Origin: a virus
Lineage: Duplodnaviria; Heunggongvirae; Uroviricota; Caudoviricetes
Direction: 5' to 3' (one strand)
Length of the DNA: 35,503 nt
IMG/VR virus record: IMGVR_UViG_2896595138_000012
The notes under the pieces are model-generated. The model was given only the letters and a program-made list of their open reading frames with translations. It did no database searches and had not been told where the DNA came from. A program made the position numbers and the translations under genes. Shown here in pieces: positions 4,316 to 8,577 of this stretch (within the stretch, counting starts at the first letter, position 1; every line of letters begins with the position of its first letter).

Positions 4316-4738
4316 ATGATTAATCCGACACTCACCCTCAAAGATAAAGCCCTTGCGGGCGCAATGTTTTTACGCAACTACGCCGCAATGATGGCTGACA
4401 CTGACAACCCGATTATGGTGCTGTCAGTGGAGCCTCACCTTATCGCCGCAGACGCAATTGAACAGGTGGTACAGGAAAACACCTGTCTGAGAAATCAGCT
4501 TGCCACCCTTCAGACAGCAGCTGACCCGGCAAAGGAAAGTGCTGAACACACCTGCCACACCACATTCATCAAAGGGACCCGCGTATGTCTGAAAAACAGT
4601 CCGCAGCAACGCGGAACGGTCGTTGACACCCGCACCAGTAGCCCCGCCATTGACCGGGTTTTCGTCCGTTTCGATTCCCCCTTCGAGGAAGACCGCCGGG
4701 TAAAGACCAGAAACCTGGAAATAACCCCCGACAAATGA
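4316..4738 (+). CDS. Hypothetical early protein
   Basis: 140-aa ORF; stop overlaps next start. Confidence 0.6.
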   Translation: MINPTLTLKDKALAGAMFLRNYAAMMADTDNPIMVLSVEPHLIAADAIEQVVQENTCLRNQLATLQTAADPAKESAEHTCHTTFIKGTRVCLKNSPQQRGTVVDTRTSSPAIDRVFVRFDSPFEEDRRVKTRNLEITPDK

Positions 4739-4992
4739 AGCTGATTATCCCTGCGCGACACCGCAAAAACCGGATGAAGCCAGGGGGAAAGCCGGAGCGG
4801 GCAGCAAGGGCGGCATACCGTCGCCTGCTGAAGGGGGACCGGTCACACGTGCGACGGCTGGAGCGGGTACCGCCCGCCCGCGTCATCAACGTCATGTACC
4901 GTTACCGGCTGTTAAGTCTGGACGAAGGCCGGACATGGGTACTGCTTAACCATAACGAATACGTGAAGAGGATAAGACGATGTTACAGATGA
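4735..4992 (+). CDS. Hypothetical basic protein
   Basis: 85 aa, arginine-rich; start overlaps upstream stop (operon coupling). Confidence 0.5.
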   Translation: MKLIIPARHRKNRMKPGGKPERAARAAYRRLLKGDRSHVRRLERVPPARVINVMYRYRLLSLDEGRTWVLLNHNEYVKRIRRCYR

Positions 4993-6702: not shown

Positions 6703-7013
6703 TGGCCATTATCTATATCGCCGGCCCCATGACGGGGAAGCCTGATTTCAACCGCACCGCCTTCACCATGACGGCGACCCGCCTGAGGATGCAGGGTCAT
6801 ACCGTACTCAACCCCGCAACACTCCCTGACGGGCTGAGATACAGGGACTACATGCTTATCGGGAGCGCCATGCTGCACTGTGCCGATGTGATTTACCTGC
6901 TGGATGGCTGGGAGGACTCGCCGGGGGCAAAAGAGGAACACGCCACCGCCCTGAAACTGAATCTGATCATCTCCACACCAGAAAGCCGTAAGGAGGCCAA
7001 ATCATGTTTCTGA
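6702..7013 (+). CDS. DUF4406 / nucleoside 2-deoxyribosyltransferase-like protein
   Basis: 103 aa; N-terminal IYIAGPMTG and later DVIYLLDGWEDSPGAKEE motif typical of this fold (recalled); start overlaps dam stop. Confidence 0.55.
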   Translation: MAIIYIAGPMTGKPDFNRTAFTMTATRLRMQGHTVLNPATLPDGLRYRDYMLIGSAMLHCADVIYLLDGWEDSPGAKEEHATALKLNLIISTPESRKEAKSCF

Positions 7014-7558
7014 AACCAATGGGGGGACCAGGTAAAGCACCGAAGCACGTCAGTGCCTGGACACAACAGGAAGACGAACTGCTTATCTCGCTTTATCAGG
7101 ATCACAGCACATGGCAAATGGCTGAACGACTTCAGCGAACCCGCAGCGCAGTGATGCACCGGATTCTTTTTTTACGTAATCGCGGGTTGATTGGTCGCAA
7201 GAGAAAAGCACCGCTGAGTGCAGAAGCCATCGCCTTTCTCACCAAAAACCGTCACGCAAAAACCGCACGGGAACTGGCCCGGAAGGCGGGATGCAGCGAG
7301 TGCACCGTGAGGTACACACTGCATAAACGGGGTTACAGCCTTAAGAAATGCGGCGAGAGCCACCATTGCACCAGATACAGCGATCGTCTGGCTGAGCTGG
7401 TTACGGAGCTACGCGACAGACGCAACATGACGTTCTGCATAATCGCGAAACACATCAACATCACGATGCAAATGCACATCAGCGATGATACGGCGTTTCA
7501 CCTCTACAACCGCCGGACCGCCGCCGACGCCCTGTTGTACGAACTGCTGCCGAACTGA
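7004..7558 (+). CDS. DNA-binding protein with Myb/SANT-like HTH repeats
   Basis: 184 aa; W-x-EDELL-x-W ... RNRG and further basic HTH-like segments. Confidence 0.5.
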   Translation: MFLKPMGGPGKAPKHVSAWTQQEDELLISLYQDHSTWQMAERLQRTRSAVMHRILFLRNRGLIGRKRKAPLSAEAIAFLTKNRHAKTARELARKAGCSECTVRYTLHKRGYSLKKCGESHHCTRYSDRLAELVTELRDRRNMTFCIIAKHINITMQMHISDDTAFHLYNRRTAADALLYELLPN

Positions 7559-7678
7559 GTGATCATCATGCACACACAAAAAAACCGCTTGCCATGTCGC
7601 AATCAGTCAGGTTACATTTCCGCTGCACCTCATAAAACGGGTGCCGGGATTGAGACCCCGCTGACAAACGTAGCGCAC

Positions 7679-7699
7679 AACCGCGCCAGCGGTTTTTTT
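7679..7699 (+). terminator. Rho-independent terminator-like hairpin
   Basis: AACCGC-GCCA-GCGGTT stem-loop followed by a T7 run, about 120 nt after the 184-aa gene. Confidence 0.45.
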
Positions 7700-7878
7700 G
7701 TGCGTACCGTATCGTCACACCTTTTTCGCATCAGAATTATGGTGGGGCGTACAGGGCCGACTTCGGTCGGGCCGGGTTCTGCGTTTGCCGGTAGTCTCAA
7801 CCCTGTACGTCTCACCACCCCGAGTTTGAGACCTCTGGATGGTGAGTTTTCAAAACTTACACACGTAGAGGCCACACC

Positions 7879-8106
7879 ATGGCAAACCGCAAACAACAGC
7901 GCGCATACGCTGCGCGTCGTCACATCCGGACTGAAATCAACCGCAGACTTTTCCGCGCCTTCCGCGTCGCGCATATCATGCACATCAATATGCTGCATGA
8001 GCGCAGTCACGCACTGTCAAACACCTATTCCGCCGCTGTTTTCAGCTATCTGGCGGATGATCTGCGCGGGCTGCGGGACCTCATTAACCAGCACTACCAC
8101 CACTAA
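7879..8106 (+). CDS. Hypothetical small basic protein
   Basis: 75 aa; AGAGG RBS 7 nt upstream of ATG; preferred over the overlapping 202-aa ORF, which has non-protein-like composition. Confidence 0.4.
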   Translation: MANRKQQRAYAARRHIRTEINRRLFRAFRVAHIMHINMLHERSHALSNTYSAAVFSYLADDLRGLRDLINQHYHH

Positions 8107-8163
8107 TCAACATCCCGCATCCATACGCGGGAGGCTTCCGCACGTCCGTTTCCGGAGGTTCTC

Positions 8164-8577
8164 ATGAAGAGCGTTAAGGGACTTTCAGATATTCAGGATT
8201 TTTTTAACTGGATGTGGGCGGTGGATCCACGCCTCGCTTCCCGTCTCAATGACCTGCACGACTATTACCGCCGCGCCTGTAAACAGGCCGCCAGCAGCGC
8301 CACCACATACGGTGAGTTTTCCTTCACCGTTGACGACCGTTACCGCGTGGACGTCAGAGACCAGAACAACAGCCTGGAGCTGGGCCTGTTCCACATCAAC
8401 GGACTCGACAGCAGTGTTATCAGCTGGTCATCGTCAGAAATGGTGCTCGTTCTGGAAATGACCACCCACAGCGTGGTCGTGAAAGGGATTAAAACGGCAG
8501 AAGACTTTATCGCTGAATACCAGCGTCTTCTTGTGCTGTACCGGGCTGCATTTCAGAAGGCAACAGCAGGGGAGTAA
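8164..8577 (+). CDS. Hypothetical protein upstream of replication gene (position of P2 B)
   Basis: 137 aa; GGAGG RBS 6 nt upstream. Confidence 0.55.
   Translation: MKSVKGLSDIQDFFNWMWAVDPRLASRLNDLHDYYRRACKQAASSATTYGEFSFTVDDRYRVDVRDQNNSLELGLFHINGLDSSVISWSSSEMVLVLEMTTHSVVVKGIKTAEDFIAEYQRLLVLYRAAFQKATAGE

Follow-up and report, generated by a model that had tools for sequence, protein, structure and literature searches.

An IsrK-C4 RNA cassette with covarying recognition sites ahead of an epsilon-like gene in the early operon of a P2-like E. coli prophage

The DNA analyzed here, a stretch of 35,503 nucleotides that we call the window, represents a P2-like prophage that is also found, at 99.4% identity, beside yecA/tyrP in E. 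coli CFSAN029787; ETEC H10407 carries a 92% relative. Among isolated phages, P88/Xuanwuvirus (Peduoviridae) and Citrobacter phiSM come closest. The gene content includes an integrase and a divergent HTH repressor, with the prophage repressor encoded at about 2477-2890 on the minus strand. A long early operon occupies the plus strand, and its last gene encodes a replication endonuclease of the P2 gpA type. About 4.4 kb into this operon lies the island studied here. Its left neighbor is the gene for a 184-aa DNA-binding protein (7004-7558), and its right neighbor is a 75-aa ORF (7879-8106), which is followed by ORF137 and gene A (8583-10742). A scan of the window for tRNA and tmRNA genes found none. 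RefSeq annotates no feature over the interval in the 99.4%-identical E. coli chromosome; in other cases it tags the spot of the cassette described below as an "ash family protein" pseudogene. The cassette is widespread, with a match in 1427 of 5426 complete E. coli genomes.

A scan of the whole window against Rfam at gathering thresholds returned two full-length matches only, isrK and C4. The first (RF01394; 7625-7699, plus strand, as are all cassette features given below) scores 67.3 bits against a gathering score of 50 and covers model positions 1-77 of 77. It corresponds to an IsrK small RNA of about 75 nt, the equivalent of seqA in P4 and of the a1/b1 region in P1. After a gap of 35 nt comes a C4 antisense RNA (RF01695; 7735-7822), the equivalent of the P4 CI RNA, which scores 81.8 bits against a gathering score of 45 over model positions 1-87 of 87. 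The initial annotation had offered a small structured RNA or a regulatory site among its readings of the island and had named an Rfam scan as the check; two curated RNAs, with the target sites described below, bear this reading out. A replication-associated site, which it had also listed, found no support, and we reject it because nothing in the analysis speaks for it.

A member of the isrK family would be expected to accumulate as a stable, Hfq-associated small RNA. A sigma-70 promoter is predicted directly before IsrK, inside the cassette (7589-7618), with the hexamers TTGCCA and TACATT separated by an 18-nt spacer. It is the sole promoter-like site within 7300-8200, and its predicted start, at about 7625, is the first base of the Rfam isrK match. 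Both hexamers are invariant among 50 relatives, and the spacer sequence diverges in one clade. Within IsrK, a segment that we call site b1 (7650-7656) occupies the loop of the second hairpin, and site a1 (7665-7673) lies in a linker; both co-vary with C4. A terminator scan predicts an intrinsic terminator at the 3' end of IsrK, with its stem at 7679-7694 followed by a T-run (the U-tract) and a predicted hairpin energy of -8.4 kcal/mol.

C4 is organized around a 17-bp closing stem (7740-7756/7801-7817). This encloses an internal UUCG hairpin, the first of C4 (CCGAC-UUCG-GUCGG, 7757-7770), and two exposed recognition segments, namely, a' in a loop (7777-7787) and b' in a junction (7794-7800). 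The UUCG hairpin had been noticed earlier as a 5-bp stem with a tetraloop at the same positions; in four relatives it is replaced by CCAGC-AUCA-GCUGG, which is a compensatory change. The dyad of GTCTCAA and TTGAGAC that had been recorded alongside it is also real and takes on a meaning here, as GTCTCAA is b' and TTGAGAC is the complementary target site b2 (7826-7832). A second target site, a2 (7860-7870), is complementary to a' and overlaps the Shine-Dalgarno sequence AGAGG (7867-7871), which ends 7 nt before the ATG of the 75-aa ORF at 7879. Both AGAGG and this ATG are nearly invariant in the relatives. Between b2 and a2 lies the palindrome AGTTTTCAAAACT (7845-7857). The initial annotation was right that it is present, but as a hairpin it lacks covariation support, with no double-sided changes and pairing in 79.6% of cells. 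A further candidate hairpin downstream of C4 (7811-7824/7833-7846) likewise gave no double-sided support in the covariation test. A member of the C4 family would be expected to mature from a longer transcript through cleavage by RNase P.

Scanning with the 75-aa protein located relatives of the locus, 80 in a viral collection and 2 in a genome collection. Comparison across related prophages had been proposed earlier as a check on whether the interval is conserved, and all of the collected loci with relatives of the 75-aa protein carry the conserved block. We aligned 50 distinct versions of the locus to look for covariation. Most of the block is near-invariant, and against this background six short hypervariable segments (a1, b1, a', b', b2, and a2) change in concert. 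Segment a' pairs with a1 (7779-7787 with 7665-7673) in 99.3% of cells with 126 double-sided changes and with a2 (over the whole of 7777-7787) in 95.3% with 123; the seven core pairs of b' are paired with b1 in essentially all sequences with 97 double-sided changes and with b2 in 100% of the 50 relatives with 99, although the relatives are close (mean column identity of 89%) and these counts of co-varying cells therefore overstate the number of independent events. In the core of b' and b2, three or four types of base pair occur at four of the positions. For each of the four pairings, none of 500 shuffles matched the observed percentage or covariation score, and the signal collapses if the partner is slid by 1 to 3 columns.

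The recognition segments fall into 14 a' types and 6 b' types, which occur in 24 combinations among the 50 relatives. Because the a and b types reassort freely, pure shared ancestry is disfavored as the source of the covariation. Cognate a2-plus-b2 duplexes have a mean energy of -22.8 kcal/mol, compared to -8.0 kcal/mol for fully non-cognate pairs. The covariation strongly supports an antisense system with many specificities.

The first gene after C4 is the 75-aa ORF (7879-8106), the presumed regulated target. Its product shares 29% identity with P4 epsilon over 66 aa (BLASTP, E = 4e-7) and matches phrog_3688 (2e-40). The score against the Pfam family Derepression (PF25738) is 25.2 bits (E = 1.3e-5), slightly under the cut-off of 27, and the homologue in P88 is annotated as a "derepression protein." Judged by these similarities, the protein is probably homologous to epsilon of P4, which is the helper derepression protein. 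A protein of this type would be expected to bind and inactivate a P2-type C repressor. The gene varies as a protein-coding gene would, with 29, 31, and 56 variable sites at the first, second, and third positions of its 75 codons. The product of the next gene, ORF137, has no similarity to P4 orf151.

A long open frame runs through the whole of the island. This ORF (7559-8167) encodes 202 aa from a GTG at 7559, or 199 aa from a conserved ATG at 7568. The promoter, IsrK, C4, and the target sites all lie within it, as does, in another frame, the whole of the epsilon-like gene. The ORF also matches a protein family. The Pfam model Phage_ASH (PF10554) scores 31.4 bits against a cut-off of 26 over aa 19-111, which is exactly the IsrK-C4 stretch, and several PHROG families of "transcriptional regulator/repressor" match at aa 7-109. 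In P4, the eta ORF matches Phage_ASH with 82.2 bits over seqA-CI, and direct BLASTP comparison of the two ORFs is not significant alone (E of about 0.1). In 60 of 63 variants the frame remains open over about 205 aa with its ATG conserved, and indels in the hypervariable segments are compensated (e.g., +1 in b1 with -1 before b2). Over the epsilon-like gene, the overlapping long frame is open in 54 of 54 distinct versions, compared to about 0.33 under synonymous shuffling. The ends of the frame are also held in place. The stop codon of the upstream gene lies 5 to 15 nt before the ATG in 58 of 76 loci (here, the ATG is 9 nt past that stop), and the stop of the ORF usually overlaps the start of the next gene as ATGA (8164-8167 in the window). 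In one clade, N-terminal extensions of the ORF (to 368-371 aa) look like a chance open frame and not like a domain.

On these grounds one might read the ORF as a genuine regulatory protein of the Ash family, with the RNA family matches secondary to coding conservation. The above-threshold Phage_ASH match, the PHROG matches, the frame open in nearly all relatives, and the occasional RefSeq label would all fit. We regard such a protein as very improbable, as the variation does not behave as that of a coding sequence. Variable columns are spread evenly over the three codon positions (34/85, 36/85, and 37/84). The hypervariable blocks change together at three sites, in a pattern of base pairing and not of codons. 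The third-position excess in the 3' part belongs to the epsilon-like frame; within that region the second codon position of the long ORF is its most variable, and the constraint lies in the epsilon frame. Furthermore, the Ash domain of P4 maps exactly onto seqA and CI, which are treated in the literature as RNAs (PMC3632133, PMC10111431). We thus reject a plain protein gene, which is contradicted by both the substitution pattern and the base-pair covariation. The Pfam and PHROG "protein" families that match here appear to have been built largely on translations of RNA genes, and caution is warranted where protein-family models may reflect translated RNA genes.

The earlier dismissal of the 202-aa ORF for its non-protein composition therefore needs qualification. 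A conserved, expressed protein had been named there as grounds for refutation, and the findings point both ways. It was correct in that the substitution pattern is not protein-like, but it passed over the Phage_ASH match and a frame that is conserved open. Similarly, the island is non-coding in that it holds two RNAs and has no codon periodicity, but an Ash-type frame of about 200 aa spans it. Since the variation has no codon periodicity, any selection must act on the open frame and not on the protein sequence. In P4, translation of the eta ORF reportedly prevents termination of transcripts from the upstream promoter (summarized in PMC10111431). By analogy, the simplest reading is that the frame is kept open so that ribosomes arriving from the upstream gene may shield transcripts of the early promoter.

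We conclude that the island is a well-organized cassette of a known regulatory type in phages and not a new kind of element. The cassette is the same kind of system as P1/P7 immI (a1b1-c4-a2b2-icd/ant) and P4 seqA-CI-seqC. IsrK followed by C4, in the same order, occurs in P4, in the P1-like RCS47 (before ant), and in an Stx2a phage, as well as in the lambdoid PhiR49_2, in P88, and in a Salmonella prophage. IsrK and C4 are treated as homologues of P4 seqA and CI (PMC3632133, PMC10111431), and an "IsrK-C4 immunity system" has been recognized in P4, P1, P7, N15, and some lambdoid prophages (PMC3632133, PMC10111431, PMC4825925). Both a "c4 antisense RNA" and a "c4-a1b1" motif were catalogued by Weinberg et al. 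(PMC2864571). In the P2-like (P88/Xuanwuvirus-type) prophage of E. coli studied here, the interval very probably serves as an RNA-based cassette of secondary immunity or anti-repressor control.

The immunity region of P4 (seqA, CI RNA, and seqC in the eta/kil ORF, then epsilon, orf151, and alpha) is the closest parallel in layout. Both Rfam families are shared and are ordered alike, within a spanning ORF of the same Pfam family (199-202 aa here and 197-214 aa in P4). The promoter lies inside that ORF, with a -35 region similar to the GCTTGCC upstream of P4 seqA, and a probable epsilon homologue and then a replication gene follow downstream. The two systems differ in notable ways, however. Here the cassette resides in a complete P2-like prophage that encodes a protein repressor of its own, so that immunity probably does not depend on the RNA alone, which would be a secondary control. 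The start of the epsilon-like gene lies 57 nt past C4, inside the long ORF and in another frame; in P4, epsilon comes after the ORF, beyond an intervening kil segment. For replication, the prophage has a protein of the P2 gpA type, and P4 has its alpha primase. Finally, the promoter in P4 is not preceded by an inverted copy of the terminator.

The immI region of P1 and P7, reportedly described by Citron and Schuster in 1990, has the order a1 b1, c4, a2 b2, then icd/ant, an arrangement that has since been summarized (PMC12197685). It shares with the cassette an antisense RNA whose two recognition segments match one pair of sites upstream and another pair that lies at the ribosome-binding site of the leading gene in an anti-repressor operon. 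In P1 and P7, a few recognition bases set the specificity, which is the basis of their heteroimmunity. The present system differs in that the regulated gene encodes an epsilon-type derepression protein and not Icd/Ant, and in that the cassette is embedded in an early replication operon. In place of two specificities, it has at least 14 a types and 6 b types. The isrK-orf45-anrP region of Gifsy-1 in Salmonella, where the short IsrK acts in trans on the read-through transcript, offers a third parallel, with an IsrK that is transcribed from a promoter of its own and ends in a leaky terminator, a processed RNA downstream (STnc1160), and RNA pairing that gates translation of an anti-repressor-like gene (PMC4825925). 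Gifsy-1 differs in being lambdoid and in having the AnrP/AntQ cascade as its output; its description mentions no inverted terminator copy farther upstream, and the lambdoid relatives found here have none.

With P1, P4, and Gifsy-1 as guides, a scheme of regulation can be proposed. Transcripts from the IsrK promoter that read through the terminator would be processed to C4, the a' and b' segments of which would pair with a2 and b2 and thereby block translation of the epsilon-like gene. Polarity following this pairing might also limit the genes downstream, including ORF137 and replication gene A. The a1 and b1 sites of IsrK would act as decoy copies of the target and modulate C4. On the model of P4 eta, ribosomes on transcripts from the early promoter farther upstream would translate across IsrK and C4, and the translated frame would keep lytic transcription insensitive to the cassette.

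Our literature search found no description of an IsrK-C4 cassette in P88 or Xuanwuvirus. For this phage group, three aspects appear to be undescribed, namely, that an epsilon-type target immediately follows C4, that the recognition types form a large and reassorting repertoire, and that this lineage has its own inverted copy of the terminator. Recognition of the cassette explains a recurrent gap in P2-like early operons, and an RNA-gated anti-repressor of the epsilon type is a possible route of induction for P2-like prophages. The many reassorting types suggest diversifying selection for mutual immunity or cross-talk among related prophages and satellites, a diversification of specificity at which the P1/P7 pair only hinted.

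An inverted repeat surrounds IsrK and its promoter. The initial annotation had reported a perfect 14-bp repeat, and the repeat is indeed present, although it is one base longer than recorded. In the whole window the 14-mer ACAAAAAAACCGCT matches only twice, once directly (7576-7589) and once as its reverse complement (7688-7701), against an expected number of 0.03. The full 15-bp arms are CACAAAAAAACCGCT on the left (7575-7589), just upstream of the -35 hexamer and at the left edge of the conserved block, and AGCGGTTTTTTTGTG on the right (7688-7702). The right arm makes up the 3' strand of the IsrK terminator stem and the U-tract, consistent with the earlier observation that this copy takes part in a terminator-like hairpin. 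No other inverted repeat of at least 12 bp with arms within 200 nt occurs in the 35.5-kb window, and 14-bp repeats arose at a mean of 0.01 in 200 dinucleotide-preserving shuffles. Beyond the perfect arms, the match continues imperfectly to 34 nt with 76% complementarity. The left arm is nearly invariant among the relatives, with which homology begins at 7564-7576 whatever the upstream gene (at least five different upstream contexts). In alignments it is absent from the P4, P1-like, and lambdoid versions, and a comparable repeat around IsrK was sought in P4, the P1-like RCS47, the Stx2a phage, and PhiR49_2 and found in none of them. Within these comparisons, the left arm is a peculiarity of the P88-type lineage.

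A perfect inverted repeat that flanks about 98 bp, with one arm at a homology breakpoint, recalls a mobile element. A miniature inverted-repeat element was among the options of the initial annotation. Read as a transposable element of this type, or as its footprint, the interval would have the 14-15 bp arms for terminal repeats. We find this extremely improbable. The right arm is integral to the terminator of an RNA gene that occurs independently in many phages, always with this terminator, and conservation runs unbroken past this arm through C4 and the epsilon-like gene, for more than 500 bp. The 14-mer occurs nowhere else in the window, and no direct duplication flanks the arms. We therefore reject such an element, given the single copy in the window, the lack of a target duplication, and the conservation past the right arm.

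Two readings of the left arm deserve closer attention, one at the level of DNA and one at the level of RNA. In the first, the arm is kept for a role in the IsrK promoter, as its UP element or upstream part, or for the binding of a protein, and its complementarity to the terminator is a by-product or the relic of an old inverted duplication. An A7 tract, which would suit a proximal UP element, does immediately precede the -35 hexamer TTGCCA and covers about -38 to -46 relative to the predicted start. The arms never co-vary, a C in the A-run of one clade is an uncompensated mismatch, and the versions in P4 and in P1-like and lambdoid phages do without a repeat of this kind. An UP element would cover the A-run, however, and not the flanking CAC and CCGCT that extend the match to 15 perfect bp. 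A shuffle expectation of only 0.01 also speaks against a by-product, as does the imperfect complementarity to about 34 nt, which is kept with different imperfections in a divergent clade. We consider a promoter element or relic possible, but would not favor it. The covariation test of the repeat is uninformative on this point, as 12 of its 17 pairs never vary.

In the second reading, the arms form a helix in RNA. The left arm lies upstream of the IsrK promoter, so that only transcripts started farther upstream hold both arms. The 14-bp helix has a predicted energy of -18 kcal/mol and the extended 34-nt helix one of -30.5 kcal/mol, and the minimum-free-energy fold of the full-length RNA contains the long-range helix. 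In RNA with both arms, the prediction strongly prefers this helix to the terminator hairpin. In a transcript from 7625 the terminator is paired with a probability of 0.68, compared to 0.00 in RNA of upstream origin once the U-tract is free; these figures come from an equilibrium calculation and do not demonstrate anti-termination on a kinetic scale. When termination is decided, the RNA:DNA hybrid still contains the U-tract, which would leave no more than about 5 bp of the left arm to compete.

Our best guess, and the least certain of our proposals, is that the long-range helix helps transcripts of the early operon to escape or reshape the IsrK terminator. In such transcripts it might act through bypass of the terminator, through processing by RNase III, or through occlusion of the start of the ORF. 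We hold an RNA helix to be a tentative reading of the repeat, short of an even chance and about as likely as a promoter element or relic. With similar reserve, we suggest that the left arm might sense the promoter from which a transcript originates and that, with its reassorting 14 by 6 types, the cassette could work as a combinatorial switch between self and non-self, an idea that we would sooner doubt than accept. If it were true, a helix of -18 to -30 kcal/mol would replace the terminator hairpin in early-lytic transcripts and bury the start of the ORF. Read-through or RNase III cleavage would then differ between transcripts of early origin and those of the internal promoter, and the switch would operate among co-resident P2-like prophages.

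The left arm falls within codons 3-7 of the long ORF, a position at which ribosomes and the helix would be mutually exclusive.

In one relative that carries the IsrK-C4 cassette (L042, positions 74-404; IMGVR_UViG_2582580934_000004), the C4 antisense RNA contains a 17-nt insertion that is a second copy of the a' hairpin. This C4 would carry a tandem pair of differing a' loops, one of the CTTTGCTCT type and one of the CTTGTGTAG type, and looks from its sequence like a recombinant of two specificity types. In another relative (L050, positions 172-485), the C4 has b' GTTGAGAA and a' CTTTGCTCT. The downstream sites a2 and b2 of this locus fit that C4, but its IsrK sites b1 (TTTCCAC) and a1 (CAAACGAAG) are mismatched to it, and for the cognate a1+b1 duplex the computed energy reaches only -6.0 kcal/mol. 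Judged by these pairings, the locus is a natural hybrid, with an IsrK heterologous to its C4.

Complementarity to the IsrK terminator's 3' strand (7687-7694) is found, too, at the 3' end of the 184-aa gene upstream (7541-7549, GAACUGCUG), in a pairing peculiar to the window's own upstream context. In the predicted fold of the truncated transcript, the terminator hairpin is displaced by this gene end and not by the left arm (7575-7589), the inverted copy of the terminator tail. Where the surroundings are of the P88 type (phage P88 itself: L002, positions 4915-4977), the upstream gene is separated from the left arm by a strong hairpin (CCGGCCAG...CTGGCCGG) with a T-run, ATTTTTT, after it, so that in such phages the cassette may be partly shielded from transcription arriving from upstream.

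The GTG of the 202-aa Phage_ASH frame (7559-8167, plus strand) abuts the stop of the 184-aa gene (TGAGTG, 7556-7561), and its own stop overlaps the ATG of the following gene, ORF137 (ATGA, 8164-8167). Such junctions suggest a chain of translational coupling that skips the epsilon-like gene (7879-8106). The IsrK and C4 genes are annotated inconsistently between databases (7559-8167 in the window; L089, 1510-1770; L002, 5033-5221): RefSeq either shows no feature or calls a pseudogene of an "ash family protein", a hypothetical CDS on the minus strand stands in the P88 record, and PHROGs labels the stretch "transcriptional repressor." The Pfam family Phage_ASH itself appears to be a model of translated seqA/CI RNAs, the P4 names of IsrK and C4.

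The Stx2a phage locus holds, about 2 kb away from IsrK and C4, an unrelated frameshift element of the IS3 family, the ALIL pseudoknot (RF01497; L087, positions 4566-4682). The enterobacterial P2-like cassette described here also occurs, at 89% identity, on a contig assigned to the Gram-positive Vagococcus (NZ_JBQPOM010000071.1, titled Vagococcus sp. WN89Y), where it is likely an assembly contaminant.
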